64,000 nt of DNA from Candidatus Levyibacteriota bacterium (GCA_963790825.1 CAWBPM010000002.1:97702-161701), one strand, 5' to 3'; positions 36,735 through 54,279 are shown, counted from the first letter of the stretch. Numbers and translations: made by a program. Notes: generated by a model from the sequence alone, not told the origin.

Positions 36735-39000
36735 TTATTTCTTATTTACCAACTTTCTCTCAAACTCTGCAATATTTTCTCTGACACTGTCGATGACATC
36801 AGGAGCAATAGAAACGCTGGTTATGCCATATTCTACTAATTTTTCCAGAAGATCCGGATACAAAGAAGGCGCCTGTCCGCAAATAGACGCTGTGATATGG
36901 TGCTTATGAGCAGTTTTGATAACATGTTCAAGCGCCCACAAAACCGCTTCACTCCGTTCATCAAATTCCGCTGCCACCTCGCTATTGTCCCGATCAGTTC
37001 CCAAAATCAACATGGTTAAATCATTTGATCCGATCGAAATACCGTCAATACCAACTTTTATAAATTCGTCAAGTAAAATAACATTCGAAGGAATTTCTAC
37101 CATCATGAAAAGCTTGAATGTCGGAGTTCTGTAAAGACCCGAAGCATTAATAATTTTCTTGACTTCAATCAGCTCATGAACGTTCCTGACAAACGGAATC
37201 ATGAGCCAAAGATTTTTCAACATCTTTTTGTTTCTGATTATTTTAATAGCTTCAAGTTCCATCTCGAAGACCTCGGGATCATGAATATACCGGTAAGCCC
37301 CGCGGTAACCCAGCATAGGATTTGGCTCGATAGGCTCAAATTCTTTCCCGCCGTCCAAGCCCCGATACTCATTCGTTTTTAAATCCGACGCCCGATAAAT
37401 AACCGGACGGGGATTAAAGGCTGAGCAAAAAGTCTCAAGCCCCAGAGCTAATTTATCAATAAAAACTTTTTTCTTCCCGTCCCGGATGAGTTTTTTCGGA
37501 TGAGTGCCGATATCTGCTATCATAAACTCCGCACGCAGTAACCCAACACCGTCGACATTTCGTCTGGCTACTTTTTCCGCGAGATCCGGTTGGGCAAGAT
37601 TAACATAAACTTTTGTCGCAGTTTTTATATATGCATGTCTTGCTTCAGGAATAGAACTCATCGCGCTTGGTTTGAAGCTCCCTTTGTATATTTCTCCCTT
37701 TGCTCCGTTTACCGTGATGACCTCTCCTGTTTTTAATATTTTTGTTGCCGTTTCGGTACCGACGACTGCCGGAATCCCCAGTTCCCGGGAAACAATCGCA
37801 GCATGTGAAGTTCTGCCGCCTTTTTCAGTCACGATAGCTACAGCTTTTTTCATCGCCGGAACATAATCGGGATTTGTTTGCTCTGCAACCAGTACATCTC
37901 CCGGGAGAACTTTATTAATTTCAGACACCGAATGAATTACTTTCCGCGGGGCCGCTGGCAATTCCCGGAGAAGCAGGGGCACCGGTAAGAAGAAGCGGTA
38001 GATTAATAACTTCCTCTTTTACCTTTTTCGTATGAGTAGTTGTAATTGCCCGGGTTTGGACAATATATACTTTATTTTTCTCAATCGCCCATTCGATGTC
38101 CTGGGGAAAATAATAATGATGCTCAAGTTTTTTTGCAAGAAGTGCGAGTTCTAAAATCTGATTGTCGGAAATTTTCTGTTTTTTCTTTTCATGATCCGTT
38201 AACCTAATCTCTTTATTTTTTGTCCCAACCTTTTTCAACATAATATCTTGCGGAGAGATAATTTTTTTCAAAATCTTAAGATCATCTTTTTTAACTTCAT
38301 AGTGATCGGGCGTAACCGTTCCCTGAACAATATTTTCTCCGAGACCCAAAATTGCTTCGATGGTAATGACAGACTTATCATTAGTTACCGGATCAAGGGA
38401 AAACATAACACCGGATTTTTCTGACTCAACCATTTTTTGAACAACGATTGCGATACCGACTCTGAAATGATCAAAATGTTGTTCATGCCGGTAAAATATG
38501 GCACGCGGTTCAAAAAGTGATGCCCAAGCTTCTTTGACTGCGAAGAGTAGATTTGTTTCACCTTTTATATTAAGATACGTTTCCTGCTGTCCTGCGAAAG
38601 ACGCAGTTGGCAAATCCTCAGCAGTAGCGCTTGAACGCACCGCAACAAGTGCGTCTTTAAAAATACCACCCAACATTTTATACGATTTAAAAATGTCATT
38701 GATTAATTGTTCCGACATACTCGCTTCCATAATCAGTTTTTTAATAAGTGAGGAAACTTGAGCAAGTGATTCGGGTCTGTCAAAACCGGTGGTTCCCAGT
38801 AGATGTTTAATTTTTGTGGTCAGGTTATTTTCGTGAAGAAACTGGAAATAAGATTGGGAGGAAACAATAAACCCATTCGGAACGGGAAATTTGGCTCTGG
38901 TCATCTCGCCCAAATTAGCACCTTTTCCGCCAACAACGGGAATGTCATTTTTATCTACTTCGGAAAACCAAAGAACTGATTTACTTTTTACGGGCATCAC
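36735..39000 (-). pseudogene. ppsA: phosphoenolpyruvate synthase (pyruvate, water dikinase) split by one frameshift
   Basis: N-terminal 359-aa ORF is the PPDK_N ATP-grasp (PEP/pyruvate-binding) part. C-terminal 415-aa ORF has the phospho-His mobile domain GGRTSHAAIVSRELGIPAVVG and the PEP-utilising TIM barrel. The junction near 37925-37980 falls in a G/C-run (AGCGGCCCCGCGG). A 1-nt indel rejoins GIASGPA to RKVIHSV. Confidence 0.6.
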
Positions 39001-39112
39001 TAAGTATTATGGAGCAGATGCAGAGAGTTAATCAAGGGGACAAAATAATTTCTTCCTTTTATTTGCCCTTTACATTTCCATCATTTTTTTTCTACAATAG
39101 ATAGGAAATACA

Positions 39113-39514
39113 GTGAACGATATGGATACAACTGCATATAAGGGTTTATTTTTAGAAACTGCCGAAGAATATGTACAAAAACTTGTGACAAATAGTAAGC
39201 TACTTTCTGCCAACTTTACTGATAGGGAAGCGATCTCGGCATTATATATTGCTGCACATTCGATAAAAAGTCAAAGTCTGATGATGGGATATACCGCAAC
39301 TGGTATTCTCAGCGGCACGCTTGAACAAATATTTAAAGAAGCGAAAGAAAGAAAAATACAGATCACCCTTTCGCAAATGAATCTTCTTTTTATCTGCATT
39401 CAAAGTCTAAAAGAATCGATTGAGAATATTAAGGCCAAAGACAAAGAAAAAGATGTGTCGGAAAATTACAAAAAACTTGAAGAGGTATTTCATATACAAT
39501 TAATAGGAAAATAA
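39113..39514 (+). CDS. Hpt (histidine phosphotransfer) domain protein
   Basis: AAHSIKSQSLMMGYTATGILSGTLEQIFKEA matches the Hpt HxxKG(S/A) helix motif. 133 aa. Directly upstream of a receiver gene and pilB. Confidence 0.5.
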   Translation: MNDMDTTAYKGLFLETAEEYVQKLVTNSKLLSANFTDREAISALYIAAHSIKSQSLMMGYTATGILSGTLEQIFKEAKERKIQITLSQMNLLFICIQSLKESIENIKAKDKEKDVSENYKKLEEVFHIQLIGK

Positions 39515-39515
39515 T

Positions 39516-39884
39516 ATGCGAATTTTACTAGTAGAAGACGATACTTTTTTCCAGAAATTCTACACAATGAAACTTACTGAAGCTGGTTTTCAGGTAGAAT
39601 TGGCTGAAAACGGAGCGGTAGGACTCGAAAAAGTTGGAGTTTCTCCGTATCCGGATTTAATTGTTTTGGACCTTGTTATGCCGGTAAAAGATGGATTTGA
39701 GTTTTTACGCGATTTTAAAAGTATAAAAATTCAGAAAAACATTCCAATTCTTGTATTCTCGACTTTGGGGCAAGAACAAGATATTACTAAAGCGAAAGAA
39801 ATGGGCGCAACGGACTATGTTAGCAAGAGTTTTTTTGATTTTGACAAATTACTTAAAAAGATTAATGATTTAATTAACAAATAA
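39516..39884 (+). CDS. response regulator receiver-only protein (CheY/PilH-like)
   Basis: MRILLVEDD...DLIVLDLVMPVKDGFEFL...VFSTLG...K shows the receiver Asp pocket and phospho-Asp context. 122 aa, no output domain. Confidence 0.75.
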   Translation: MRILLVEDDTFFQKFYTMKLTEAGFQVELAENGAVGLEKVGVSPYPDLIVLDLVMPVKDGFEFLRDFKSIKIQKNIPILVFSTLGQEQDITKAKEMGATDYVSKSFFDFDKLLKKINDLINK

Positions 39885-39901
39885 TACGAAATTACCTGCC
39901 T

Positions 39902-41584
39902 ATGCTAATTACGAGTGAAGAGCTGAAAAAATTAGTTTTGAACACCAAGTTACTGGAAGAAAAAGAGTATCTGGTAATTGAAGAGTTTGCGAAAAATTCA
40001 AATGTCGATCCGGCTGAAGCTTTAGTTCAAAAAGACGTTATTTCTGATGAAAATTTAGGAATAATGATCGCGGACTTTTTAAAAGTACCTTTTGTAACTC
40101 TGTCTAAGCTTTCCATCCCTGAAGATGTTATTCGTATCGTCCCCGAAAGAATTGCCAGAAAGCACAAAGTAATTCCCTTCGCCAAGGATGAGTCGGGAAT
40201 AAAACTCGCGATGGTTGATCCGTCCAATAAAGAACTTGTAGATCTAATCTCAATGAAAACCGGAGATAAAGTTATCCCGCATCTGGCGACAGAGCGTGAT
40301 ATTTATAACACACTTAGAGTTTATCGAAAAGATTTACAAAAGACATTTCAGGATCTACTTACGGAAGAATTGAGAAAATCGGGAAGCATCGTTAATGAAG
40401 CACCGGTTGAGAAGATTGTTGACATGATCATAGACTATGCATATCAGGATAAAGCTTCGGATATTCATATCGAACCTGAAGAAAAAGATTCATTGGTTCG
40501 CTTTCGCATTGATGGCATACTTCACGATGTTCTGATTATACCCAAAGCACTTCATGAACAAGTAACAACCCGTATAAAAGTATTGTCCCGTCTTAGAACG
40601 GATGAACATATGGCTCCGCAAGACGGCAAACTTAGGATTAAATTAGAAGAGGAAGAGCTTGATATTCGTGTGTCAATTCTACCGATTTCGGGCGGAGAAA
40701 AGACAGTCATGCGACTTCTCGCTTCACGCTTCGGGCAATTTTCACTTCTGGATTTAGGTATGAATGAGAAAGATTTGAAAAAAGTAACGAACGCGTTCAG
40801 CAAATCATACGGCATGGTACTTTCAACAGGCCCGACAGGTTCGGGAAAAACGAGCAGTATTTACGCAATCTTAAAAATTCTTAATACCCGGGAAAAAAAT
40901 ATTACAACAATTGAAGATCCGGTTGAGTACAGGATCAAGGGTGTTAATCAGATCCAGGTAAATTCGAAAACTAATTTAACTTTTGCTAACGGTTTAAGAT
41001 CAATTTTAAGACAGGATCCGAACATTGTTTTCGTGGGAGAAATACGTGATAACGAAACTGCGGGAATTGCCGTAAATGCTGCTTTAACCGGACATTTAGT
41101 ATTATCAACACTGCATACCAATGATGCTGCTACTGCTCTGCCCCGTTTGACAGACATGCAGGTAGAGCCGTTTCTGGTTGCTTCAACTGTTAATGTTATT
41201 ATTGGTCAAAGACTGGTTAGAAAAATCTGCGAAATGTGCAAAGCAACAACAATGGCAAGTCGCTCGGAACTGGTAAAAAATCTATCCGAAGAAGTAGTAT
41301 CGAAGCATTTTGACCAGAAAGAAGAACTACGCGTCTTTAGGGGTCAGGGATGTAAAGTTTGCCACACTACAGGATATGCCGGACGTATCGGAGTATTTGA
41401 AGTTTTAGAGGTGAGTAAAACCATCAGAGCGCTTATTGCGAAAAAAGCTGATGCGGACATGATCGTGCAGAAAGCGATGGAAGAAGGGATGACCACTATG
41501 CTTGATGACGGACTTGAAAAAGTTGCCCGGGGAATAACGACTATTGAGGAAGTATTCAGAGTAACGAAAGTAGAAAACGCATGA
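39902..41584 (+). CDS. pilB: type IV pilus assembly ATPase PilB (GspE family)
   Basis: N-terminal GSPII_E_N/MshEN-like domain, Walker A GPTGSGKTSS, Asp box, His box and a Cys-x2-Cys...Cys-x2-Cys-type zinc motif (CEMCKA...CKVCHTTG). 560 aa. Confidence 0.85.
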   Translation: MLITSEELKKLVLNTKLLEEKEYLVIEEFAKNSNVDPAEALVQKDVISDENLGIMIADFLKVPFVTLSKLSIPEDVIRIVPERIARKHKVIPFAKDESGIKLAMVDPSNKELVDLISMKTGDKVIPHLATERDIYNTLRVYRKDLQKTFQDLLTEELRKSGSIVNEAPVEKIVDMIIDYAYQDKASDIHIEPEEKDSLVRFRIDGILHDVLIIPKALHEQVTTRIKVLSRLRTDEHMAPQDGKLRIKLEEEELDIRVSILPISGGEKTVMRLLASRFGQFSLLDLGMNEKDLKKVTNAFSKSYGMVLSTGPTGSGKTSSIYAILKILNTREKNITTIEDPVEYRIKGVNQIQVNSKTNLTFANGLRSILRQDPNIVFVGEIRDNETAGIAVNAALTGHLVLSTLHTNDAATALPRLTDMQVEPFLVASTVNVIIGQRLVRKICEMCKATTMASRSELVKNLSEEVVSKHFDQKEELRVFRGQGCKVCHTTGYAGRIGVFEVLEVSKTIRALIAKKADADMIVQKAMEEGMTTMLDDGLEKVARGITTIEEVFRVTKVENA

Positions 41585-42630
41585 AAACAGAACGAGTCAG
41601 CCTTTCCGGCAATGATAAAATCGGTTTTATCAGTAGTCTTACTACTATGCTTGGGGCGGGCATTCCAATTCTTGAAACAGTAGATTCGCTCCTTGAAGAC
41701 GCGAAAGGCGGACAGAAAAAGCTACTCGAAACCATGCGGGCAGATTTAACGCAGGGACAACATATCTATTTTACGTTTGCAAAGTTTCCCTTAATTTTCG
41801 ATAAAGTAACCATCAATATTATTCGTGCGGCAGAAGAGGCGGGGACATTGGATGTTACGCTCACGGATGTAAAAAACAATATTCAAAAGGAAATGGAATT
41901 TACCGATAGAATTCGCTCGGCGCTTATTTATCCTATGTTTATCGCCTTTATATTTGTTGCGGTACTTTTAATGATATTAATTGTTGTCGTCCCAAAAATT
42001 AGCACAGTATTTGTACAATTGAAAGTGAAGTTGCCATTACCGACAAAAATTCTCATATTTTTGTCAAATATGTTATTGAACTATACCATACCGGTAATTA
42101 TCGGCTTTATTGTTTTTACTATCCTGGCGATTTACATTTATAAAAGAGAAAAAGGATTCATCATTCAAACGCTAACATCTCTGCCGGTTATTTCAAATTT
42201 GATGAAAGAAATTGATTGGAACCGTTTTACCAGAAGCATGTTTTTACTTCTCAGCGCCGGTATTCCGATTACCAGTGCCTTGGAAATGACACAAGACGTG
42301 GTAACCAGAAAAGAAATAAAAAAAGCAATTAAGCACGCAAGCGATGTAGTATTTACGGGAAAAAAATTGTCGGAAGGCTTAAAAGATGAAAAGAATGTAA
42401 TTTCACCGATTGTCATCAGAATTATTGAAGCGGGAGAGAAAACCGGATCTTTGGATAAGGCTATGCAGGATGCCGCAGATTTTCTTGAATATCAGATATC
42501 CGGAAACTTAAAAGCAGCTACCGCGTTAATTGAACCGATGATGCTGGTTATTGTCGGGGTGCTTATCGGGGGAATGATGATCGCAATCATCGGTCCAATT
42601 TACAGTATGATAGGGCAAATAAGTCCATAA
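41581..42630 (+). CDS. pilC: type IV pilus inner-membrane platform protein PilC (GspF family)
   Basis: Two T2SS-F-like repeats with TM helices. 4-nt overlap with pilB. 349 aa. Confidence 0.75.
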   Translation: MKTERVSLSGNDKIGFISSLTTMLGAGIPILETVDSLLEDAKGGQKKLLETMRADLTQGQHIYFTFAKFPLIFDKVTINIIRAAEEAGTLDVTLTDVKNNIQKEMEFTDRIRSALIYPMFIAFIFVAVLLMILIVVVPKISTVFVQLKVKLPLPTKILIFLSNMLLNYTIPVIIGFIVFTILAIYIYKREKGFIIQTLTSLPVISNLMKEIDWNRFTRSMFLLLSAGIPITSALEMTQDVVTRKEIKKAIKHASDVVFTGKKLSEGLKDEKNVISPIVIRIIEAGEKTGSLDKAMQDAADFLEYQISGNLKAATALIEPMMLVIVGVLIGGMMIAIIGPIYSMIGQISP

Positions 42631-42634
42631 TCCT

Positions 42635-43150
42635 ATGCAGATACATCATTCGTTTTCCTCTTCCAAACAAGCCGGATTTCCCCCGGTTCAATCGGGGTTT
42701 ACTCTGGCGGAATTAATATTAGTTATGTTGATTTTTACTACTCTTGTCGGAATTGCGACCATTAACTTGGCGCATATCCAACGCCGATCATCTATGACCA
42801 GCAGCATAAACATGCTGGCAACCGACATGAAAGAACAGCAAGTAAAAGCAATGGTTGGGGATACCGAAAGCAGAGCAAGTCCCGATAATTACGGTATTTA
42901 TTTCGGTACAAGTTCTTATACGCTTTTTCATGGCACCTACTCTGCAACTGATAGCGCAAATACCGTTATTCCAATCGATGCTACATTGCATTTTGCGACT
43001 CCCGGAGCCAGTATTATTTTTACCAGAGAGAGTGGTGACGTGTTGAATTATAGTATAAATGCTAACCTGATCATAATTCAGGATATAACGAATGGAGAAG
43101 TGACTAAGCTTAAGTTTAATAAATTCGGTGCGATAATAGGAACATATTAA
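42635..43150 (+). CDS. prepilin-type N-terminal cleavage/methylation domain protein (minor pilin/pseudopilin)
   Basis: Class III signal QSGFTLAELILVMLIF (G|FTLxE). Confidence 0.65.
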   Translation: MQIHHSFSSSKQAGFPPVQSGFTLAELILVMLIFTTLVGIATINLAHIQRRSSMTSSINMLATDMKEQQVKAMVGDTESRASPDNYGIYFGTSSYTLFHGTYSATDSANTVIPIDATLHFATPGASIIFTRESGDVLNYSINANLIIIQDITNGEVTKLKFNKFGAIIGTY

Positions 43151-43153
43151 ATT

Positions 43154-43672
43154 ATGAAAAATTTTCTTTTCATTTCGAGTCATGATTATTTGAAAGGCTT
43201 TACTATTGTTGAATTCCTTATTTATATGGGAATACTTGTTATTTTACTTACTGCTTTAACTAGTGTTTTTACCTCAATTCTCGATGTATCTTCAGAGTCT
43301 CAGGCAAGTTCCGCAGTAGAGAGAAACGGAAAGTATATTCTGGCAAAACTGGCGTATGATATTCATCAGGCGACCGGTTCCGGTGTTTTGTCCCCGGTTT
43401 TGGGAAGTTCTTCAGGTAGCCTTAAACTTTCTCTCGGAGGTATAACAAGCACTTACAGCACGAATAATAGCGGCAATTTACAAGTAACATCAAATCTGGG
43501 CACGGATTTTCTAAGCAGCTATGATGCCAGTGTTTCCGGCTTAACATTTACCACATTGGGTAATAGCGGAGGAAAAAATTCAGTACAAATTAGCTTTACT
43601 TTGACTAGTTTGATGCAGCGAATATCCGGTAACGAAACAGCAAATTTTTCAACAACGGTTGGAACCAGATAA
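43154..43672 (+). CDS. prepilin-type N-terminal cleavage/methylation domain protein (minor pilin/pseudopilin)
   Basis: KGFTIVEFLIYMGILVILL class III signal. Ser/Thr-rich body. Confidence 0.6.
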   Translation: MKNFLFISSHDYLKGFTIVEFLIYMGILVILLTALTSVFTSILDVSSESQASSAVERNGKYILAKLAYDIHQATGSGVLSPVLGSSSGSLKLSLGGITSTYSTNNSGNLQVTSNLGTDFLSSYDASVSGLTFTTLGNSGGKNSVQISFTLTSLMQRISGNETANFSTTVGTR

Positions 43673-43679
43673 TTAATAT

Positions 43680-44078
43680 ATGCAAGAAAAAAATTTAATT
43701 AACAGTAATCAAAAGGAAGGGGGACAAGCGCTCATTACCTTGCTTTTTTTTGTAATCATTGCCATAACTATAACTTCGGCATCAGTTGTGGTATTAATCG
43801 CAAACAGCACCTCCGCGACGAAATACGAGGAAGGAATCAGGGCATTTTATGTAGCGGAAGGTGGAGCGGAAAACGCGGTTCTTCGATTACTGAGAGATCC
43901 TACTTATACAGGTGAAACATTGACAATTTCCGATGGAACTGCAACGATATCTGTAAGCGGGTCCGGTCCTTTTACAATTACGTCAAAAGGCGTTGTTGGA
44001 AATTTTACAAGAACAGTTCAAGTAAGCGCTGCCTACGTGAATAATATATTAAGCATTACTTCCTGGAAGGAAATTTAA
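43680..44078 (+). CDS. pilus-associated protein with N-terminal hydrophobic helix (PilX/pseudopilin-like, non-canonical leader)
   Basis: GGQALITLLFFVIIAITITSASVVVLIA hydrophobic segment without the G|FTLxE consensus. Located inside the minor-pilin run. Confidence 0.35.
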   Translation: MQEKNLINSNQKEGGQALITLLFFVIIAITITSASVVVLIANSTSATKYEEGIRAFYVAEGGAENAVLRLLRDPTYTGETLTISDGTATISVSGSGPFTITSKGVVGNFTRTVQVSAAYVNNILSITSWKEI

Positions 44079-44080
44079 CA

Positions 44081-45196
44081 ATGAGTAAGGGAATTATCTA
44101 TTTACAAAAAGAACAATTTGATTTATATCTCAACGATCAACAAAAAATCTTTACCTGCCAATTTACAAAAGATCTGGTAAATTACATGGAAGTAATTAAT
44201 AAAGAAGCGTTTGAAAATCTTATTACCTCATTTATCACGACGAATAAACTGCAACCGGCAAATCTCATTATTGTTTTAGCAAATTCTATAGTTTTTACAA
44301 AAGAAATCACAAATCCTCAACCAACTCCAAACGATGCAAAATCTGCTCCTGATAAATTAAAGTTAATTGCAGAAGAAAAGGCCACGAAAGATAGAGAGGG
44401 ATTATTGATCCAACAATTTATTGACAACATACCCTTTGCCGAAGTAAGTCATAAAATTATTTCTCTCCCGACCGGAAAAAAAGTAATTGCCGCCAATACG
44501 GATTTATATGACAGAATTAAAAATGTTTTTGCAAAATCAGGATTTATTATAGAAGCAGTAGCACCTATCGCAGTTTTAGATGCCAGCATCAGTGCACAAC
44601 CAAATTTTTCCCTGCAAATGGGGCAGCTTATGCTTGGGAAATATGACATATTGAGACAAAATAGTTTGGTGGTTAATTATCAGAATGAATTAATAAAATC
44701 CGGTAACAAAAATAAACATGCAGTGGGAAAAAGTACGAATAAACGAGCCTTTATTCTTTCCGGAGTTTTGGGGTTACTACTTCTTGTTCTGGGAGTCATG
44801 GTATATATGACCTATTTTGCTTCACAAACAACGTCTAAAAAACCTTTACCCGGTGCTTTAACTCCGGCTTCCGCCAGTCCCACCGGCCTACCGGTTGCAT
44901 CGGGATCGGCACAAGTTATTCCAGATAACTCGGGTGTTACTATTATTGCAACAGAAGGGGAGGATAGTCTTTCTACCACGCTTAGAGAAAATCTCACTTC
45001 TTTAGGGTTTACCAATGTTAGCTCAGTCAGCTCAGGACTTACCAGTATTCCTCGGACAACAATTTCTTTTACATCAAGTACATCTGCCGATGTAAAAGTT
45101 AAAATAGTAAATGCTGTACAAGCATTATCACCCGAAGCCGTGGTCGCTCCGGATATTAACAGTAGCGGTATTACTATTAATTTATCTAATAAATAG
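44081..45196 (+). CDS. pilus assembly protein, PilM-N-terminal-like cytoplasmic domain fused to PilN-like TM/periplasmic part (tentative)
   Basis: About 210 cytoplasmic residues starting GIIYLQKEQFDLYL (PilM-like start), one TM helix (AFILSGVLGLLLLVLGVMVYM), then a Ser/Thr/Pro-rich periplasmic tail. Sits between the pseudopilins and the major pilin. Confidence 0.3.
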   Translation: MSKGIIYLQKEQFDLYLNDQQKIFTCQFTKDLVNYMEVINKEAFENLITSFITTNKLQPANLIIVLANSIVFTKEITNPQPTPNDAKSAPDKLKLIAEEKATKDREGLLIQQFIDNIPFAEVSHKIISLPTGKKVIAANTDLYDRIKNVFAKSGFIIEAVAPIAVLDASISAQPNFSLQMGQLMLGKYDILRQNSLVVNYQNELIKSGNKNKHAVGKSTNKRAFILSGVLGLLLLVLGVMVYMTYFASQTTSKKPLPGALTPASASPTGLPVASGSAQVIPDNSGVTIIATEGEDSLSTTLRENLTSLGFTNVSSVSSGLTSIPRTTISFTSSTSADVKVKIVNAVQALSPEAVVAPDINSSGITINLSNK

Positions 45197-45199
45197 CTT

Positions 45200-45766
45200 C
45201 CTTTATTTTCCCTCTTGACAATTAGGAAAAGGATATGATTTACTAAATGCAGAGATATGAAAACAACTGCCCCGATAAATAAACTAGCTAAAGGTTTTAC
45301 CCTCATCGAGCTCTTAGTTGTTATCGGCATTTTAGCAATTCTTTTGGCAATCACCTTAATCGCAATTAATCCGGCCAGACAATTCTCCCAGGCAAATAAT
45401 ACAAAAAGAAGCAGCGATGTGAATGCTATTCTTAATGCCGTCAATCAGTATATGGCAGATAATAAAGGTGCTCTTCCCACAGGTATTAGTACGACAGCCC
45501 AGACGATTAACGGAGTAGATTTTGGAGCCATGTGCACTGCATTGGTTCCTACATATATAGCCGCACTTCCGGTAGATCCATTATCTAATGCAAATGCGGT
45601 ACAGTCTACAGATTGCACGAGTACTACATGGAATACAGGATACGTAGTACAGCAGTTAACAGGTGGCAGCAATAGGCTTACGGTATCCGCACCGGGAGCA
45701 GAGCTGGGGGCCACTATCTCCGTAACCAGATAAAGAGTTTCTCCTTATTAATTTAATTATTATTAA
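45200..45766 (+). repeat. 567-bp perfect direct repeat, copy 1 (pilin promoter + pilin gene + 33 nt 3' flank)
   Basis: Identical base-for-base to 48076-48642 by direct comparison of the printed sequence. The flanks diverge immediately outside both ends. Confidence 0.85.
45257..45733 (+). CDS. pilA: type IV major pilin (prepilin with 13-aa leader, G|FTLIELLVV)
   Basis: MKTTAPINKLAKG|FTLIELLVVIGILAILLAITLIAINP class III signal. 158 aa, with two Cys near the C-terminus (disulfide loop). A TTGACA hexamer lies 35 nt upstream. Confidence 0.8.
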   Translation: MKTTAPINKLAKGFTLIELLVVIGILAILLAITLIAINPARQFSQANNTKRSSDVNAILNAVNQYMADNKGALPTGISTTAQTINGVDFGAMCTALVPTYIAALPVDPLSNANAVQSTDCTSTTWNTGYVVQQLTGGSNRLTVSAPGAELGATISVTR

Positions 45767-46465: not shown

Positions 46466-47926
46466 TCATTTTGTAAAAATTGTATAGTTACCAATATTTT
46501 TACTTTGGCTATAATGATTTTTGATAAATTGTACAATAGGACTAAGATCCTGACTATTTGTTTTTCCTAAGATAATCATTGGTACTTTTTTCTTTGTTAA
46601 ACTATTGATTATATTCTTCTGATAATTCGTTTCTACCTCGATCGGAGAAATTAAATCAGACCGTGTAGCATTTATTCTATCAGCTAAAAAATAAACTAAC
46701 GGAACATATTGATATATATAAATAAAATCGTTGGGTTTTGTTTTTGTCTGAATATACTTAGTTATCTGCATTGTTCTTTCAATTTCCTGATTAGAAAGAA
46801 AAACGTGAAGCCTGGGGTCTTGAGCGAAAGTTGTATCATACTGCATGGGAGGATTCCACCTATAATATCCGTAAAAATAAGCAGAATACAATCCAAGCCC
46901 TGTAATAAATATGAGAATAAGAAGAAAAAACTTCTTATTAAGTTCACTTTTATTATTACTGATGATAATTGCCAGGGGGAGGCAAGATATTGCAAGTAAA
47001 GGAACAAAGTGATCATAGTCGGTAGTCGGGCGTATACCAAGTAAATAAAATGTAGCAGTAAAAAGTGGTACGATTAAAAGATTTTTATTCGATTTTAAGC
47101 AAATAAAAAATGAGATAACAGAAAGTGTAAGGGGGGAAGTATAAAGAATGAATTTAAGTATTTTTATAATAAATGATCCTTGGTAAATAAATTGCGTGTC
47201 CAGAGTTTTACCGAAAAGTATCCGCTCGAAAGTATAGATATACATGTCTTTAATAAACGGCATAAATGAAGAAGTAAAAAGTAGTATTCCTGTGATTACT
47301 ATTCCGGAAGTTAAAAGACCGAACAAAAAGTAAAAAACATAGATCTTTTTTTTAAAAAAAAGAAAAGGCAAGAATGAAACGAGAAACAGACCGATACCAA
47401 AATTTTGTTTAGAAAGAAAAATCAGAATGACCATAATGCCGGACATAAAAAAGTACACCCCCTTCTGCCTAATGATTCCCAGCAAATAAAAAAATATTGT
47501 GTAGAGATAAAAGCATACTGCAAACATTGTCGGCCAGGGAAAATTGATATGAGCCGGTCCCCAGGCTATAAAAAATAAAAGCGACAACAAAACAAGAGGA
47601 ACCTTCTTGGTTATAAGTCTTACTATTTTATAGAGGGCAAAAAGTGACAACAGTGAAATAGCCAAACTGGCCAAACGTCCTGAGAATACACTCTCTCCGA
47701 ACGTATGAAGAAATACAGAGGTAATGAGAAATGATAGCGGAGTATATGTAACATCAAAATCCCGATATGGAACTTGTCCATGCACGACCCTTAGTGCAGA
47801 GTTTAAGATATACCCCTCATCCGAATATATTATTCCTTTAAATTGGAAAAAAATAAGAATATTAAGAAGTACCAATATAAAAAAAAGAAACAGTAAATTG
47901 TTTAGAGAAAATAATTTATCTCTCAT
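46466..47926 (-). CDS. GT-C fold glycosyltransferase, ArnT/PMT (GT39/GT83)-like polytopic membrane protein
   Basis: IIYSDEGYILNSALRVVHGQVPYRDFDVTYTPLSFL resembles the DE...Y...A...G.W..P motif of ArnT/PMT-family enzymes in the first periplasmic loop. More than 10 TM helices and a soluble C-terminal domain. Located between duplicated pilin genes. Confidence 0.5.
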   Translation of the reverse strand: MRDKLFSLNNLLFLFFILVLLNILIFFQFKGIIYSDEGYILNSALRVVHGQVPYRDFDVTYTPLSFLITSVFLHTFGESVFSGRLASLAISLLSLFALYKIVRLITKKVPLVLLSLLFFIAWGPAHINFPWPTMFAVCFYLYTIFFYLLGIIRQKGVYFFMSGIMVILIFLSKQNFGIGLFLVSFLPFLFFKKKIYVFYFLFGLLTSGIVITGILLFTSSFMPFIKDMYIYTFERILFGKTLDTQFIYQGSFIIKILKFILYTSPLTLSVISFFICLKSNKNLLIVPLFTATFYLLGIRPTTDYDHFVPLLAISCLPLAIIISNNKSELNKKFFLLILIFITGLGLYSAYFYGYYRWNPPMQYDTTFAQDPRLHVFLSNQEIERTMQITKYIQTKTKPNDFIYIYQYVPLVYFLADRINATRSDLISPIEVETNYQKNIINSLTKKKVPMIILGKTNSQDLSPIVQFIKNHYSQSKNIGNYTIFTK

Positions 47927-48075
47927 AAGTATGACAAGTATATAGGAAAAGGATTTTTCTTTCCATCGAATTAGTTTCTGGTTTCATTTACTATAATTCG
48001 TTTTACCCTGTTTGTTGATATTTTCTTATTTTTACTTGATTCTATTTACCTTAAATTTAGCTTCCGTTATGTTTC

Positions 48076-48642
48076 CCTTTATTTTCCCTCTTGACAATTA
48101 GGAAAAGGATATGATTTACTAAATGCAGAGATATGAAAACAACTGCCCCGATAAATAAACTAGCTAAAGGTTTTACCCTCATCGAGCTCTTAGTTGTTAT
48201 CGGCATTTTAGCAATTCTTTTGGCAATCACCTTAATCGCAATTAATCCGGCCAGACAATTCTCCCAGGCAAATAATACAAAAAGAAGCAGCGATGTGAAT
48301 GCTATTCTTAATGCCGTCAATCAGTATATGGCAGATAATAAAGGTGCTCTTCCCACAGGTATTAGTACGACAGCCCAGACGATTAACGGAGTAGATTTTG
48401 GAGCCATGTGCACTGCATTGGTTCCTACATATATAGCCGCACTTCCGGTAGATCCATTATCTAATGCAAATGCGGTACAGTCTACAGATTGCACGAGTAC
48501 TACATGGAATACAGGATACGTAGTACAGCAGTTAACAGGTGGCAGCAATAGGCTTACGGTATCCGCACCGGGAGCAGAGCTGGGGGCCACTATCTCCGTA
48601 ACCAGATAAAGAGTTTCTCCTTATTAATTTAATTATTATTAA
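48076..48642 (+). repeat. 567-bp perfect direct repeat, copy 2
   Basis: Identical to 45200-45766 (offset 2876 bp). Confidence 0.85.
48133..48609 (+). CDS. pilA: type IV major pilin, exact duplicate of 45257-45733
   Basis: Encoded protein identical over all 158 aa. Lies inside repeat copy 2. Confidence 0.8.
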   Translation: MKTTAPINKLAKGFTLIELLVVIGILAILLAITLIAINPARQFSQANNTKRSSDVNAILNAVNQYMADNKGALPTGISTTAQTINGVDFGAMCTALVPTYIAALPVDPLSNANAVQSTDCTSTTWNTGYVVQQLTGGSNRLTVSAPGAELGATISVTR

Positions 48643-48767
48643 TCCATTATTTATTTGTATTTTGTTTAATTTTATTTCTTATGAAGATAGCCTTTTTAAG
48701 TATACAACTTTCAAAATATTCCCTATTGACAAATAATTGAAAAAACTGATTAAATTAGTGCATAGAT

Positions 48768-49244
48768 ATGAAAACAACTGCCCCGATAAATAAACTAGCT
48801 AAAGGTTTTACCCTCATCGAGCTCTTAGTTGTTATCGGTATTTTGGCAGTATTACTGGCAATTACTTTAGTTGCCATCAATCCGGCCAGACAATTTTCCC
48901 AGGCAAATAATACAAAACGAAGCAGTGACGTAAACTCCATTCTGGATGCAATTAATCAGTACATGGCAGATAATAAAGGTGCTCTTCCCACAGGTATTAG
49001 TACAACTGCCGCAACAATTAATGGGACGGGCTTTACAGCTCTCTGTAGCGCTTTAGTACCTACTTATATAGCCGCTCTTCCGACTGATCCATTATCGAAT
49101 AATTCTGCCGTACAGTCCAGTAGCTGTACAAGTACAACATGGAATACAGGATACGTAGTACAGCAGTTAGTAGGAGGAGGTAATAGGGTAACTGTTTCTG
49201 CTCCTATGGCTGAGCTTAGTGCAACTGTTTCAGTAACGAGATAG
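48768..49244 (+). CDS. pilA: type IV major pilin, divergent third paralogue
   Basis: Same leader and N-terminal helix (MKTTAPINKLAKGFTLIELLVVIGILA). About 30 substitutions concentrated in the central/C-terminal variable region. Own TTGACA-N17-ATTAAAT promoter-like sequence upstream. Confidence 0.8.
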   Translation: MKTTAPINKLAKGFTLIELLVVIGILAVLLAITLVAINPARQFSQANNTKRSSDVNSILDAINQYMADNKGALPTGISTTAATINGTGFTALCSALVPTYIAALPTDPLSNNSAVQSSSCTSTTWNTGYVVQQLVGGGNRVTVSAPMAELSATVSVTR

Positions 49245-49268
49245 TCCCCTCTGAAGTTTAGACCTATC

Positions 49269-50297
49269 ATGTCTTTGCCTAAAATATCTGTAAATATTCC
49301 ATTTCGTGTAACAGGTAATGCAAATATTGCCCTCAAATCTCTCCTCTACGTTGATTATCCAAAACAACTTTTTGAAATAATTCTTATAGAAGGAAATCAG
49401 CCGGCAGCTCAGCGCAACGCGGGTATTCGTCTATCAAAAGGTGATATTATTTATTTTTTAGATAACGATTCAAGAGTTAGAAAAAACTCGCTGCGTCTAA
49501 TAGCAAATGAGTTCTCATACTCTTCTGCAGCAGCTCTTGGAGGCCCTAGTCTTACATACAATCAAGGCAAGAATGATCTCAGTCAATTAATTGGTTTTGC
49601 TTTAGAAACCTTTTTTGGTTCACTTCGCATGCGTTATCGTTACAGCAAAAAAACAACGGGTGAAGCATCAGAATATGAACTAATCGGAGCGAATCTCGCA
49701 ATGCGCAAAGCTGTTTTGAATAAGGTTGGCGGATTTGATGAAAGGTTTTATCCAAATGAAGAGACTGAGCTACTCAGAAGACTTAAAGATAAAGGGTATA
49801 TTTTGCAATACAAAAGAGAACTATTTATCCATCGGAAGCACAGAAAAGATCTGAGTGAGCTGACGAAGCAATTTTATCAATATGGAAGCGGGCGCATGAA
49901 GCAAATTAGGATAAACCCAAAGATAGAAGATATATTATTTATACTACCGGTTTTGTTCGAGGGCTATCTCATTACTCTTATTTTTTATCACACGCTTTTT
50001 TACGTATCTCCACTTCTTTTCTATTTGCTGCTTGCAATTACTACTTCAGTAAAAGCTGCTATTAAATACAAACGGCCTGATTTATTTTTTTCTTTGCCTC
50101 CACTTTTCTTACTTATCCACCTTTCTTACGCTACCGGTGAAATTACAGAGTATTTAAAACCCTTGTTTAATAAGCAACTGAAACTTCCTAAGCGTACCAT
50201 TAAACATAAGATTAAAGCGATTAAAATAAAAACGTATACAGAGGAGCTTTCCAGTGTTGAGAAACTTATTTCTTTTCAGCCAAAACGAGGTAATTAA
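49269..50297 (+). CDS. glycosyltransferase family 2 protein with C-terminal TM helices
   Basis: GT-A fold motifs (IILIEGNQP...DNDS...) in the first ~230 aa, then a membrane-embedded C-terminus. Confidence 0.6.
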   Translation: MSLPKISVNIPFRVTGNANIALKSLLYVDYPKQLFEIILIEGNQPAAQRNAGIRLSKGDIIYFLDNDSRVRKNSLRLIANEFSYSSAAALGGPSLTYNQGKNDLSQLIGFALETFFGSLRMRYRYSKKTTGEASEYELIGANLAMRKAVLNKVGGFDERFYPNEETELLRRLKDKGYILQYKRELFIHRKHRKDLSELTKQFYQYGSGRMKQIRINPKIEDILFILPVLFEGYLITLIFYHTLFYVSPLLFYLLLAITTSVKAAIKYKRPDLFFSLPPLFLLIHLSYATGEITEYLKPLFNKQLKLPKRTIKHKIKAIKIKTYTEELSSVEKLISFQPKRGN

Positions 50298-51048
50298 AGC
50301 ATATTGTATGAGATGGAAATATTTTATCGAGCAAGATGCAGAGATAAGAAAATGCAAGAAGAATAGGATAAAAAAGCAGTGCGAACAAGTAGAAAATTTT
50401 GTTTTTGTTTGCTATCTCAATAAGATAATCCATTAGTAATACAATAATTGTAGAAAAAATAGAACCTTCCTTTACTACTTTTAGTACCGTACATTGATTC
50501 CTATCAAATAATTTACGCAAGCCATATTCAGTAAAACGGAAATAATCTCTTGGGATCTCATGAAGACTCCAGGTTAGTGGGGCGCTGATAAGAATCTTCC
50601 CTCCTTTTTTTACCACCCTAACCATTTCACGAACACATAACTCAGGATTGGAATGATGTTCAAGGACTTGAAAAGAAACAACAGTATCAAAATTATTATC
50701 TTTAAATGGCAAGAGCAAAGATTTTTTATAATTGTTATCAAAAAATAGATCTGGTTTTTCACCAAGGATTCCTTTCGACCTTGAATAGTCGGGAAAATCA
50801 ATACCAACATAACTACTAACAGCAGAAAAAACTCCCTGATAGGGTTTTTCTCCACAACCAACGTCCAGTAATTTTCCATAAAATTTGTATCTGTGCGCTA
50901 GTAGTTTAATATCGCGTAGTAAGTAATATTTAGCTAAAAAATGAGGGGCTATGAGAAAATAAAGCGGTTGCAAACTCTTCCCAAAAGATTTTACAAATCC
51001 GGAGGCCTCAATAATACGCTTATTTTTTATATTTTTTTTCATTATCAA
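50266..51048 (-). CDS. class I SAM-dependent methyltransferase
   Basis: Motif I LLDVGCGEKPYQ. 260 aa with a C-terminal hydrophobic segment. Convergent 32-nt overlap with the GT2 gene. Confidence 0.6.
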   Translation of the reverse strand: MIMKKNIKNKRIIEASGFVKSFGKSLQPLYFLIAPHFLAKYYLLRDIKLLAHRYKFYGKLLDVGCGEKPYQGVFSAVSSYVGIDFPDYSRSKGILGEKPDLFFDNNYKKSLLLPFKDNNFDTVVSFQVLEHHSNPELCVREMVRVVKKGGKILISAPLTWSLHEIPRDYFRFTEYGLRKLFDRNQCTVLKVVKEGSIFSTIIVLLMDYLIEIANKNKIFYLFALLFYPILLAFSYLCILLDKIFPSHTICFNYLVLAEKK

Positions 51049-51056
51049 AATTAATT

Positions 51057-52229
51057 TTAATCATACATTAATAATTGGTACATTGCAGAATATAATTTTT
51101 CTCTATTGAATCTATTTTGTATAAAAGATTGTATCGCATGACGATTAAAAGGAGTACCATTTATACAATAAATAATCTTATTAATAAATTGTTCCTTATT
51201 CTTAACTAAATAGCCATTTTTATTGTTAACTATTATATCATTACACCCCTGAATATTATAGGAAATGACTGGTAATCCTAAACTTTGCGCTTCGAGTAAA
51301 ACATAAGGAAAACTTTCCCATTTACTGGTACAAAGCAGCAAATCATTGTCTTGGTATACATTCGCCGTAGCTTTATTTTCTATATATCCTAAATAATGAA
51401 CATTTGACCATTTTTTACTCAGTTTTATGATATCTTTTCTCAACTCTCCGTCGCCCGCAATATTCCATACAATCTTATTTTGATAACCTGAACTATTCAT
51501 GCTATCTATAATTTCAATCAAGTCGAACACTCCTTTTTGTTCAGTCAGCCTTCCGATCCAAAGCAAAGCAAAGGTACCTTTTTTGCTGGTAATTTTAGTT
51601 TTACTAATCGTAGCCTTATGAGAGAAATAGGAAAAGTCAAATGGGTGATATATTTTTTGTATTTCTTGTTTAGGTATTAATTTCGTTAATCTTTCCTCAT
51701 CAAATGTATTCATAACATGCAGTCTTAATGCTCCGGATAAAGCAAATTTATAAATCAGCGAGGAGTAAAGCAGATTATGCAGTTTTGACTGTAACGATTT
51801 TGTAATCGGATAAAAGGATGGAATATGGAGTCCATAAATAACAGGAGGAAGATTTTTGTAACCAATAACATATTTCAAAAGAATGACTTCTAGAAGATTA
51901 TTCGAACTGTAGATTACATCAAATTTACCCAGTTTCTTTTGCATATCTTTTAATCCTGAAACAGTAACATAGCGGACATCTCCCAATTGTTTTTTAATAT
52001 GTCCGCTTTTTTCTTTATATATTTTTCTATCTTGCAAACCTAAAAAATAAATATTATAGAAAAAAAGAGTTTTTTGCAGCATTTTTTCATCAAATGTCAA
52101 AATAGTAATATCCAAATCAGGATATCTTTCTTTTATACCGGTGGCAGTATCGATAAAATATTTTGCTAGCCCGCCGCCATATTCAAGCAGTAAGTAGTTA
52201 AAAAAAACAATCTTCATATTTCTAGTCAA
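51057..52229 (-). CDS. glycosyltransferase family 1/4 (GT-B) protein
   Basis: C-terminal E-X7-E-like region FPYVLLEAQSLGLPVISYNIQGCNDII typical of GT4 retaining transferases. Confidence 0.65.
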   Translation of the reverse strand: MTRNMKIVFFNYLLLEYGGGLAKYFIDTATGIKERYPDLDITILTFDEKMLQKTLFFYNIYFLGLQDRKIYKEKSGHIKKQLGDVRYVTVSGLKDMQKKLGKFDVIYSSNNLLEVILLKYVIGYKNLPPVIYGLHIPSFYPITKSLQSKLHNLLYSSLIYKFALSGALRLHVMNTFDEERLTKLIPKQEIQKIYHPFDFSYFSHKATISKTKITSKKGTFALLWIGRLTEQKGVFDLIEIIDSMNSSGYQNKIVWNIAGDGELRKDIIKLSKKWSNVHYLGYIENKATANVYQDNDLLLCTSKWESFPYVLLEAQSLGLPVISYNIQGCNDIIVNNKNGYLVKNKEQFINKIIYCINGTPFNRHAIQSFIQNRFNREKLYSAMYQLLMYD

Positions 52230-54279
52230 TTAATTTATTTCTAATTGCGGATTTTACATATGTATTCTCTGTAATATCCTCATTAAATTTAGCTTTGTAA
52301 TTTTGCTTGAATTTCTGAATCGTTAACGGAGTAACGTGACATTCTTTATCTAAAATATAGAGCTGGCCATAATATGTTCTCCAAATAGAGTAATTGATTA
52401 TTGCCTTTTTCATATTAGAAAGGGAATTAATACAGTCCTTGCTTCCTTTAAACTGGCTAATTGCCAGACCCGAATATGCGCTTGGATTTTGTTCATCGAT
52501 CCGGATAGCTCTTTGGTAATAGTTTTCTGCAGTTTTCGGATCGTGATAAAAAGACATGAGAAAATCTCCGGCCCGGACCAGAGTATTGGAGTAAAATGAA
52601 GGAATTTCGGGGGTAATGAGACCATCTTCGTCTAATTGTAATTCGTCGAGTCTGACAGGGTGCATGATTTTCCAATTATCCTCGAACGCTTGTATGTAAT
52701 CGGCTTTTTTGTAAACTGTTTTATTACTAATTATCTCACCCACCAAACCTCTTGGTAATAAATAAAATCCTCTCGGAACAAATGAGACATCAAAAGTGGC
52801 GTATAATTTTCTATTCTTGCTTATTTCCTGAAGTGTGTTATTTAAGACATTTTTTAGTTTAACTGCGGGATGAGATTTATGATATTTATTAATTTCCAGG
52901 TCAAGATACACATTCCCGCCGACTCCCAGAGGATTAATAATGTCTACATCCGGTCTGAACTTAACGACGAAATGCTCATACCAGATATTAAAAGTAGTTG
53001 TATCTCCAGATACAAGAAGAACAGAATTTTCAGGAAGTTCACTTAAAATATCTTTCGCATACGTATTACCGATCTGAGTGTGAGACATATCGGTTTTCTG
53101 AAAATTATAATAGATTAAATCAAACGGAATGAGCAGGAAATAGGCCAGAATTAGAGTGGTGTATATCTTTTTTGAAAGCTTTGAGTCCAATAATTCCTTA
53201 AGATAAAGAAAACCAAAAGGAACAAGAAGCATAAAAATAACATAAGGAAGAACATAAAAGCGTTCACTAATTCCCCAGGAAGTCGTAGTAGTAATAACAG
53301 GTGCAGAGTAATATACAAAGAACGGGCCGGATAAAAGAAAAGACAGAAGAATACTGATCAGAAGCAGTTTATTTTTTTTGTAGAGCTTTATAATTCCTAA
53401 GAGCGCAACAGCACAGATTTGATATGAAAAGGTAGCAATCAGAGTCTTGAAAAAATCTCCCACAACAATTAGTTTCACCCGTGTCGGGATCTGATCCACG
53501 AGGCCGGGTGCAGTTCCGTAATCTTTTCTTAAGATAAGATCCAGAAAATTTTTTAGGCTCGATGGATTATCCCAATTAACAATCGGGTTGGATAATGCGC
53601 TAAACGGTACGTAGATATAAGGTGATAGTCCCAAGAAAAAGAATAAAAAAGCAATAAAAATGTGTCTTCTTTGTGAAAAAATAACCGACGATCTTAAAAA
53701 AAGTAAAAAAAGAATTCCGGGAAAAATAAGAATAATAGTCTGGTGATGTGTCAGAGATAATCCGCAAAAAAATGAAAGCAAATAAAAATAGCGAATCTGT
53801 TTATCTTGGTAAAATACATAGGTAAAATAAAAAATAATAATTACAAAAAGATTGTTCAGACCAAATACTTCGGGAATTTCTGCATGCAGCCAGAAATAAT
53901 AAGAAAATGCTAAAATCGCAGTCGAAAGAAGAGAGAGAAAGAAATTTTTTGTAATTCTGTAAGATAATTTATAAAAGAAAATAAGGCCGATAAAGGAAGC
54001 AATCGTTGAAACCAATGCAACTTTTGTGACCGGCGGGAGAGAAATTGGTAGATGAGAAAAGAGAAAACCCAACATAATAAAAAGCGGATATCCCGGGGGA
54101 TGGGCAATGCCATGAAAAAAAGATGCGGTTACCAAATCTCCAATATCGCCACTATAGATATCTGAAGTTATGTTATGAAGGTAAAGGCCAAGAATAAGCC
54201 CAAAAAAAACAAATAAGACAATCTTTCTAACCTGGTTAGTCACAGGTACTATTATAGCAACACCGGTACTCCTTGACAT
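52222..54279 (-). CDS. GT-C fold glycosyltransferase-like membrane protein (DUF2723/PMT_2-like) with C-terminal TPR region
   Basis: SGDIGDLVTASFFHGIAHPPGYPLFIMLGFLF contains the HPPGYP signature recalled for DUF2723. About 12 TM helices, then a soluble C-terminus with TPR-like repeats (YYQRAIRIDEQNPSAYSGLAISQF). Confidence 0.5.
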   Translation of the reverse strand: MSRSTGVAIIVPVTNQVRKIVLFVFFGLILGLYLHNITSDIYSGDIGDLVTASFFHGIAHPPGYPLFIMLGFLFSHLPISLPPVTKVALVSTIASFIGLIFFYKLSYRITKNFFLSLLSTAILAFSYYFWLHAEIPEVFGLNNLFVIIIFYFTYVFYQDKQIRYFYLLSFFCGLSLTHHQTIILIFPGILFLLFLRSSVIFSQRRHIFIAFLFFFLGLSPYIYVPFSALSNPIVNWDNPSSLKNFLDLILRKDYGTAPGLVDQIPTRVKLIVVGDFFKTLIATFSYQICAVALLGIIKLYKKNKLLLISILLSFLLSGPFFVYYSAPVITTTTSWGISERFYVLPYVIFMLLVPFGFLYLKELLDSKLSKKIYTTLILAYFLLIPFDLIYYNFQKTDMSHTQIGNTYAKDILSELPENSVLLVSGDTTTFNIWYEHFVVKFRPDVDIINPLGVGGNVYLDLEINKYHKSHPAVKLKNVLNNTLQEISKNRKLYATFDVSFVPRGFYLLPRGLVGEIISNKTVYKKADYIQAFEDNWKIMHPVRLDELQLDEDGLITPEIPSFYSNTLVRAGDFLMSFYHDPKTAENYYQRAIRIDEQNPSAYSGLAISQFKGSKDCINSLSNMKKAIINYSIWRTYYGQLYILDKECHVTPLTIQKFKQNYKAKFNEDITENTYVKSAIRNKLID

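Follow-up and report, generated by a model that had tools for sequence, protein, structure and literature searches.

A stand-alone CheA-P1-type phosphotransfer protein and a CheY-like receiver at the head of a type IV pilus operon in a Candidatus Levyibacteriota bacterium: candidate distal half of a pilus-dedicated phosphorelay

The type IV pilus operon described here lies on the + strand, at positions 39113-45733, of a 64,000-nucleotide (nt) stretch of DNA from Candidatus Levyibacteriota bacterium (GCA_963790825.1 CAWBPM010000002.1:97702-161701), referred to over its full length as the window. The operon opens with genes for a stand-alone histidine phosphotransfer protein (Hpt) and a stand-alone CheY-like receiver (REC1), which represent a conserved, sometimes fused module attached to pilB, the gene of the extension ATPase. 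On balance, these first two genes are likely to form the distal half of a pilus-dedicated His-Asp-His-Asp phosphorelay. The gene order given in an original prediction made from this DNA, i.e., Hpt-REC-pilB-pilC, three minor pilins, a further protein and pilA, was confirmed by Pfam matches and by the coordinates of nine + strand open reading frames (ORFs), the eighth of which is a membrane protein. Judged by its PilB, PilC and prepilins with class III signal, the operon is predicted to encode a type IV pilus machine of the monoderm type, as in the Candidate Phyla Radiation (CPR). Its host is an ultrasmall CPR/Patescibacteria member of the Microgenomates type with a small genome; the closest PilB matches among species-representative genomes (61-73% identity) come from metagenome-assembled genomes named Candidatus Levybacteria, Gottesmanbacteria and Roizmanbacteria, with a few in this range bearing other taxon labels, and the guanine-cytosine (GC) content of the source DNA is about 0.38. 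ORFs of the window with a length of 110 amino acids (aa) or more were all scanned against Pfam, which is also the scope of the absences reported for the window below, and NCBIfam profiles were used for the operon proteins.

The assignment of the first gene held in the profile search which had been set beforehand as its refuting test, with sequence and predicted fold agreeing. The protein comprises 133 aa from a GTG start, or 130 aa from an ATG at 39122, and carries its phospho-acceptor His49 within the motif HSIKSQS. Its best NCBIfam matches are partial and cover the N-terminal ~117 residues of CheA equivalog models; likewise, CheA P1 domains are the best sequence matches in the PDB, with HSIKSQS aligning to HTLKGMA of T. 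maritima CheA and LEQIF to LENIL, including the conserved Glu. The His never varies, be it in 24 locus orthologs or in 66 cluster representatives, and conservation of the downstream Glu amounts to 90% or more. An AlphaFold2 (AF2) model built from an alignment of 38 family members features five helices at a predicted local distance difference test score (pLDDT) of 95.9. Foldseek comparisons gave template modeling scores (TM) of about 0.82-0.89 to CheA P1 structures and of 0.81-0.82 to the R. sphaeroides CheA3-P1 bound to CheY6, against only about 0.4 to HptB, Ypd1 or plant AHP-type Hpt proteins. The model thus points to the five-helix CheA-P1 fold and not to that of Ypd1/HptB. P3, P4 HATPase and P5 CheW-like domains were detected neither in the 133-aa protein nor in the window. 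HMMER, run exhaustively over 1.84 billion cluster representatives, returned 151 proteins at E<=1e-10, most of them stand-alone proteins of 120-135 aa with 30-41% identity, the remainder being CheA or multi-Hpt ChpA-like proteins, of which P0004 (8 stretches), P0073 and P0079 are among the best matches. A triple fusion of Hpt, REC and PilB was not found among the longer homologs, which are CheA proteins or fragments thereof and, in the case of P0106, a Hpt-REC fusion.

REC1 begins 1 nt past the Hpt stop codon and is translationally coupled to it. Its catalytic residues (E8-D9-D10, D52, S82/T83, K104) are conserved in 26 orthologs, Spo0F and similar stand-alone receivers are among its PDB matches, and no DNA-binding or other output domain was found by Pfam. 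In several relatives both proteins are joined in a single chain (L017 and L023 with 248-249 aa, L080, L081, and P0106). The window also contains the second orphan receiver which had been noticed at 54.3 kilobases (kb). Moreover, by its profile scores this protein is the ortholog of a second receiver (REC2) that is paired with a GAF kinase in relatives, since REC2 orthologs reach 182-221 bits on the REC2 hidden Markov model (HMM) versus 73-102 bits on that of REC1. REC2 keeps the acidic pocket, the phospho-Asp, the Thr and the Lys, and is the proposed relay intermediate. The relay parts present are, accordingly, a Hpt with its His and two receivers with a full acidic pocket, Thr/Ser and Lys. 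Both single-domain receivers are linked to pilus genes, REC1 by adjoining pilB and REC2 by its linkage to the cluster here and in relatives; other receiver-domain ORFs around pilB are restricted to a few loci with a Che set or extra receivers (L062, L067, L068, L074, L075, L077, L079, L084).

Conservation of the module was assessed in two samples, one of 58 genome loci anchored on PilB and one of 80 metagenome loci found through Hpt alone, for which counts refer to the testable loci with enough flanking DNA. The metagenome search used the pattern HS[LI]KSQSxxM from a 38-sequence Hpt subset, as the 66-sequence alignment was too diverse, and this sample is consequently biased toward the subfamily. 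In the Hpt-anchored loci, the stand-alone Hpt is always followed by or fused to REC1 (64 of 64), and Hpt-REC1 is always followed by PilB (58 of 58). The order further downstream is equally conserved, with PilC, minor pilin 1, a large pilin-like gene, minor pilins 2 and 3, the membrane protein and PilA. The Hpt-REC-PilB arrangement is far beyond chance, and on the grounds of this linkage and gene order Hpt-REC1 is regarded as a dedicated accessory of the pilus operon instead of a chance neighbor. Among the PilB-anchored loci, the pair stands directly upstream of pilB in 25 of the 38 with a PilB at least 56% identical and in none of 14 more distant ones. As the pairing recurs in essentially every Hpt-bearing relative, the module is probably a signal-dependent on/off switch of the pilus motor.

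A kinase in cis had been reported as lacking, which is true for the window, where none lies adjacent to the operon, but is a local peculiarity of this genome and not general. In 21 of 58 testable Hpt-anchored loci, REC2 is located directly upstream of Hpt in divergent orientation, and in 18 of 36 a GAF kinase convergent with REC2 completes this upstream group; a GAF-HisKA-HATPase kinase with REC2 directly upstream of Hpt was also found in the genome loci L004, L007, and L014. These kinases show either the GAF-HisKA-HATPase or the 7TM-GAF-HisKA-HATPase architecture, and the GAF kinases form a tight family with 298-835 bits to the L004 kinase. A different layout was observed in L013, L016, L023, L030, and L039, which harbor REC2 just downstream of pilA, in L016 and L023 followed by the convergent kinase. 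The window resembles this second layout, except that pilA and REC2 are separated by 8.5 kb containing two further pilA genes as well as glycosyltransferases, and that pgi instead of a kinase is convergent with REC2. Linkage of REC2 to the cluster hence survives at least three arrangements. Neither the kinases of the relatives nor that of the window carry a receiver domain, so a separate receiver would be needed to feed the Hpt.

The sole kinase of the window, described originally as the nearest one at 60 kb, is present with the HTH-PAS-GAF-PAS architecture assigned to it. It is not, however, the ortholog of the relay kinase of the relatives: with 30% core identity and 104 bits it falls outside the range of 298-835 bits within that family, and a higher identity (38%) was obtained to a PAS-PAS kinase in L027. 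It was rejected as relay-kinase ortholog and stays a possible input. Its sensor architecture is unusual in opening with an HTH_17/MerR-type DNA-binding domain, and the region is flanked by genes for a putative phage metallopeptidase domain protein (58297-58680) and a CopG-antitoxin-like protein (62381-62983), suggestive of mobile or defence-related DNA having been inserted between REC2 and this kinase. Besides, one metagenome locus (L101:2279-3986) features a CHASE3-HisKA-HATPase kinase directly upstream of a stand-alone Hpt with no REC2 between them, which is a possible alternative input.

These observations are best accommodated by a four-step relay from kinase via REC2 and Hpt to REC1, with REC1 acting on the pilus, and we hold this to be the probable arrangement. 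A cytoplasmic or membrane GAF-type HisKA kinase would autophosphorylate and pass the phosphoryl group to the stand-alone REC2, from which it would be transferred to His49 of the CheA-P1-type Hpt and then to Asp52 of REC1. Once phosphorylated, REC1 would alter pilus activity by protein-protein contact, its likeliest partner being the PilB extension ATPase. The direction of phosphate flow, the kinase at work in this genome and PilB as the target are inferred. The output step has a precedent in Synechocystis, where only phosphorylated PixG binds the pilus motor PilB1 (PMC11181946).

Several points weigh against this relay. The whole model is built on sequence and gene neighborhood, and PilB as target is an analogy, with no feature of the PilB N-terminus seen to separate loci with and without the module. 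Thirteen close relatives possess the pilus operon without Hpt-REC1, e.g., L034 in which ppsA directly abuts pilB, so that the module is dispensable for pilus assembly. Furthermore, CheA-P1-type domains are normally phosphorylated by the P4 domain of CheA and not by a receiver; receiver-to-P1 transfer is known only as reverse transfer, in the phosphate sinks of S. meliloti and R. sphaeroides and in ChpA. An ortholog of the GAF relay kinase is absent from the window. In addition, a short PilB gene of 1656 nt is common to the 18-21 loci in which kinase and REC2 lie upstream; these probably belong to one subclade, for which reason they may reflect a single evolutionary event. Finally, L016 retains the kinase-REC2 pair by pilA while no Hpt-REC1 occurs within 10 kb, and REC2 may therefore also act alone. 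The evidential weight lies in the persistence of the REC2 linkage through at least three arrangements and not in the raw counts.

The provenance of the Hpt is suggested by relatives in which its place is taken by a complete chemosensory kinase. In eight Hpt-anchored loci the Hpt serves as P1 of a genuine CheA (P1-P3-P4-P5) encoded behind CheY and CheB, and two contigs of uncultured relatives, L077 (3215-13087) and L084 (114-10467), carry a full set of methyl-accepting chemotaxis protein (MCP), CheW, CheY, CheB, CheA, CheC/X and CheD among pilus genes. The order is PilB-PilC-...-minor pilins-MCP...CheD-REC-PilA in L084 and ...CheD-kinase-REC-REC-PilB-PilC in L077, whose PilB is 58% identical to that of the window and whose PilC is only 28% identical. 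The GC content of the Che-bearing contigs ranges from 0.35 to 0.56, and components of the MCP/CheW/CheA type were seen only in the related contigs L067, L077, and L084. The P1 domains of the pilus-linked CheA proteins in L077 and L084 reach 106-126 bits on the HMM of the stand-alone Hpt, the family's own range being 75-153, and belong to this family. In the Che clusters, the closest non-ortholog of REC1 (92-128 bits) is the receiver that neighbors PilB or PilA. CheA is found in the very place of the stand-alone Hpt, no locus was seen to contain both, and the same type of pilus-proximal receiver follows each. In evolutionary terms, the Hpt resembles a CheA P1 that was released from a chemosensory system linked to the pilus and then placed under a classical kinase. 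A Pil-Chp-like logic, as suggested initially, is accordingly plausible as ancestry, given the CheA-P1 fold and the Che set in related pilus clusters, but does not describe the present wiring, which appears to consist of a HisKA kinase and a separate receiver. Full-text literature searches returned no account of Che genes in CPR pilus clusters. The wider proposal, that in this Microgenomates/Levybacteria-type lineage a P1 domain freed from the pilus-linked CheA was put behind a GAF-HisKA kinase via a receiver, converting a chemotaxis pathway into a four-step relay which gates the extension motor, is tentative and may well be wrong.

The same ancestry could also be taken to mean that the chemosensory pathway is still complete, with a P1-less CheA core (P3-P4-P5) encoded elsewhere and phosphorylating the Hpt in trans, as for CheA3/CheA4 of R. 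sphaeroides; this would make REC1 the CheY in a full MCP/CheW pathway and leave REC2 and the HisKA kinases unrelated to it. The P1 fold of the Hpt with its structural proximity to CheA3-P1 in complex with CheY6, the full Che sets of L077 and L084, the scores of their P1 domains within the family range and the kinship of their receivers to REC1 all fit such a split system. It is nevertheless unlikely, as the window contains no P3-P5 core, MCP, or CheW, no P3-P5 core was found within 7-10 kb of ~95 stand-alone Hpt genes, and in half of the testable loci the Hpt genes adjoin instead REC2 and a HisKA kinase; they were never seen together with the CheA whose position they share. The phosphorelay also competes with a branched scheme in which the kinase phosphorylates one receiver as the true output, with the Hpt draining phosphate to the other and thereby tuning the signal duration. 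Transfer between P1 and CheY is reversible, and PilG and PilH are a pair of antagonistic CheY-like regulators in a pilus chemosensory system. Pilus chemosensory systems typically possess two such antagonists, e.g., PixG/PixH (PMC11181946), and the kinase-REC2 pair persisting by pilA in L016 in the absence of Hpt-REC1 would suit this scheme as well. The invariable coupling or fusion of REC1 to Hpt at pilB, however, suits an output better than a drain, and the kinase always pairs with REC2 and never with REC1, which renders a phosphate sink improbable.

Least credible, and in our estimation very remote, is a role apart from the pilus, in which Hpt-REC1 would merely be co-transcribed while controlling another process, possibly transcription, or would be a decaying remnant without function. 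The thirteen relatives with the same operon lacking the module, and gene decay elsewhere in the window, with pyrG and ppsA in pieces, could be cited for it. REC1, though, has no DNA-binding or other output domain, both ORFs are intact and translationally coupled, the linkage to pilB was found without exception in the Hpt-anchored loci, and the phospho-sites are invariant in more than 60 sequences of 30-40% overall identity, from which purifying selection on the module is deduced.

A second possible route of control, through cyclic di-GMP (c-di-GMP), was rejected. The MshEN match at the N-terminus of PilB, pointed out in the original prediction, is real; the c-di-GMP-binding motifs are absent. 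The tandem 24-residue motif RLGxx(L/V/I)(L/V/I)xxG(L/V/I)(L/V/I)xxxxLxxxLxxQ is said to have been defined by Wang et al. in 2016. In an alignment of the window's PilB with that of M. xanthus, ELKKLVLNTKLL... stands in the place of motif 1 and DPAEALVQKDVI... in that of motif 2, with R, G, G, and Q all substituted, and the regular expression of the motif matches none of 51 PilB sequences, that of the window included. PilB is hence probably not a c-di-GMP receptor. The degenerate GGDEF protein at 5.1 kb was found as described, with a weak domain match and no GG[DE]EF motif, and an Rfam scan of the window yielded two tRNAs only and no riboswitch. Against the TIGR02538 model PilB scores 531 bits, below the cut-off of 675. 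The reported lack of pilD and pilT in the window was borne out by the Pfam scans and, for PilT, by a PilB-seeded six-frame search; both are possibly encoded elsewhere. A second PilB/PilT-like ATPase was likewise not found within 10 kb of pilB in any relative's locus.

Table 1. Positions of the pilus operon and of further features in the 64,000-nt window.
Feature	Position	Strand	Evidence and remarks
Weak GGDEF-domain protein	5102-6106		Pfam
Sigma-70-like promoter candidate	39069-39098	+	TTTACA-18-TACAAT; consensus match only
Hpt, CheA-P1-type, stand-alone	39113-39514	+	Pfam PF01627, 34.4 bits (cut-off 24.6)
REC1, stand-alone CheY-like receiver, 122 aa	39516-39884	+	Pfam Response_reg, 77.5 bits
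PilB-type extension ATPase, 560 aa	39902-41584	+	T2SSE, 426.6 bits; MshEN, 62.8 bits (residues 61-139)
PilC platform protein, 349 aa	41581-42630	+	T2SSF, two repeats, 157.5 bits; GspF and PilC models match
Minor prepilin 1, ComGD/GspH-like N-terminus	42635-43150	+	N_methyl, 21.9 bits; ComGD, 29.5 bits
Minor prepilin 2	43154-43672	+	N_methyl or PilX_N prepilin N-terminus (Pfam)
Minor pilin-like protein 3, no Glu5	43680-44078	+	PilX_N, 16.8 bits, under cut-off; orthologs in relatives
Bitopic membrane protein, 371 aa	44081-45196	+	No Pfam, NCBIfam, or PDB-profile match
Exact 567-nt direct repeat (pilA + 57 nt upstream + 33 nt downstream)	45200-45766 (copy 1); 48076-48642 (copy 2)	+	
pilA copy 1, major pilin	45257-45733	+	Cleavage KG|FTLIEL; N_methyl, 32.9 bits; GspG-like match
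Glycosylation-type island	46466-54279		PMT_2, GT2, S-adenosylmethionine (SAM)-methyltransferase, GT4, TMEM260-like PMT with TPR (Pfam)
pilA copy 2	48133-48609	+	100% identical to copy 1
pilA copy 3	48768-49244	+	86% identical
REC2, stand-alone receiver	54314-54697	+	Pfam, 82.8 bits
HTH-PAS-GAF-PAS-HisKA-HATPase kinase, no receiver domain	59961-62198	+	Pfam

Within the operon, spacers range from -4 to +17 nt, and only pilA is preceded by a larger gap of 60 nt. The promoter candidate, obtained in a consensus scan, sits in the 112-nt gap between Hpt and the divergent ppsA. The latter, a phosphoenolpyruvate (PEP) synthase/pyruvate phosphate dikinase (PPDK)-like gene on the - strand (36735-39000), is divided into two ORFs (37921-39000 and 36735-37982) overlapping by 62 nt; in relatives the corresponding place, also divergent from Hpt, is taken by one undivided ORF of ~750 aa. 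Further away, pyrG (CTP synthase, 17997-19382, +) is spread over at least three frames (17997-18386, 18301-18549, 18939-19382) and thus represents either a pseudogene or a gene broken up by frameshift errors.

Minor prepilin 1 has orthologs in all relatives, every one of which features, between minor pilins 1 and 2, a gene for a pilin-like protein of 640-1030 aa with a prepilin N-terminus, e.g., L002:13279-15312 with LVIVD repeats and L005:12015-14963. This large protein is likely a tip adhesin. The window shows only a 3-nt spacer at this position (43150-43154), and no homolog was found anywhere else in it; the same gene order and the same junction of minor pilins 1 and 2 recur in an independently assembled contig of 7.3 kb (L001).

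The 371-aa protein upstream of pilA had been labeled a fusion of PilM-N-like and PilN-like parts, a label which could not be upheld. No PilM or PilN match was obtained in Pfam or NCBIfam at E<=0.1, and a profile of 26 homologs found neither of the two in the PDB. The protein is composed of a ~215-aa cytoplasmic domain for which no family was detected, a transmembrane helix at ~224-246, a low-complexity linker rich in Pro/Ser/Thr and a C-terminal domain. In 7 of the 26 aligned homologs the latter matches PF13399 LytR_C, and one homolog (P0154) is annotated at source as a LytR C-terminal domain protein, while about 10 homologs end after the transmembrane helix. An AF2 model from two sequences was unusable (pLDDT 44). 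By its place in the operon the protein occupies the position of PilM/N/O, and its C-terminal domain is predicted to be homologous to LytR_C.

The pilA gene described as ending the operon is confirmed, with two additional copies located downstream, the first of which belongs to an exact direct repeat (Table 1). The pilA copies flank a PMT_2 glycosyltransferase gene on the opposite strand, and genes of glycosylation type are interleaved with the pilA paralogs, making this island a candidate pilin O-glycosylation module. Genes for phosphomannomutase and mannose-6-phosphate isomerase were noticed at 55759-57592.

Type IV pili are reportedly essential for cultured Patescibacteria to move and to associate with their hosts (PMC11665869), and full-text literature searches returned no account of CPR pilus regulation or of a Hpt-receiver head on CPR pilus operons. 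If the proposed relay is real, it would represent the first defined signaling input to the pili which these episymbionts need for locating their hosts and staying attached to them. With its small size and invariance, the phosphotransfer module at pilB offers a concrete and testable signaling route in organisms with few regulators, which in many relatives is completed by the adjoining GAF sensor kinase. Moreover, it would provide a clean natural case of a CheA-P1 domain working outside CheA, with bearing on the interconversion of chemosensory systems and phosphorelays.

Compared with known systems, the module shares with Pil-Chp of Pseudomonas aeruginosa (ChpA with multiple Hpt domains, PilG, PilH) the linkage to pilus genes and the presumed transfer from a P1/Hpt-type domain to stand-alone CheY-like receivers, and this likeness extends to the ChpA-like proteins among the best Hpt matches and to the related contigs with a true Che set. 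It differs in that the window lacks the CheA core, MCP, CheW, CheR, and CheB, the Hpt being a free 133-aa protein, that the upstream partner in relatives is a HisKA-type GAF kinase with a separate receiver, and that the setting is a reduced CPR bacterium with PilT neither in the window nor in any relative's locus. The Tax1 system of Synechocystis (PixJ-PixL-PixG/PixH) likewise has two CheY-type receivers downstream of a Hpt-bearing kinase; PixL, however, is a CheA-type hybrid kinase and PixG has a PATAN domain, whereas here REC1 is bare and the Hpt separate. The succession of non-hybrid kinase, receiver, phosphotransferase, and terminal receiver would be the same as in KinA-Spo0F-Spo0B-Spo0A of B. 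subtilis and CckA-ChpT-CtrA/CpdR of Caulobacter. In contrast to the DHp-like dimers Spo0B and ChpT and the four-helix Hpt proteins Ypd1 and HptB, the phosphotransferase would here be a monomeric five-helix CheA-P1 fold, and unlike in the classical phosphorelays, the terminal receiver has no DNA-binding domain and presumably targets the pilus motor. A P1 separated from its kinase core is also found in R. sphaeroides with CheA3 (P1-P5) and CheA4 (P3-P4-P5), where CheA3-P1/CheY6 is structurally close, but no P5 is attached to the Hpt and no P3-P5 partner lies near any family member. As for the MshE/PilB-type c-di-GMP receptors, the N-domain of the window's PilB matches Pfam MshEN and aligns to the N-domains of PilB, PilF, and MshE in the PDB, but differs in both 24-residue motifs by the loss of R, G, G, and Q. 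The parts are thus all of known kinds, and what would be new is their combination, with a free-standing CheA-P1 domain of a CPR lineage being fixed to pilB and taking part in a relay fed by a HisKA kinase.

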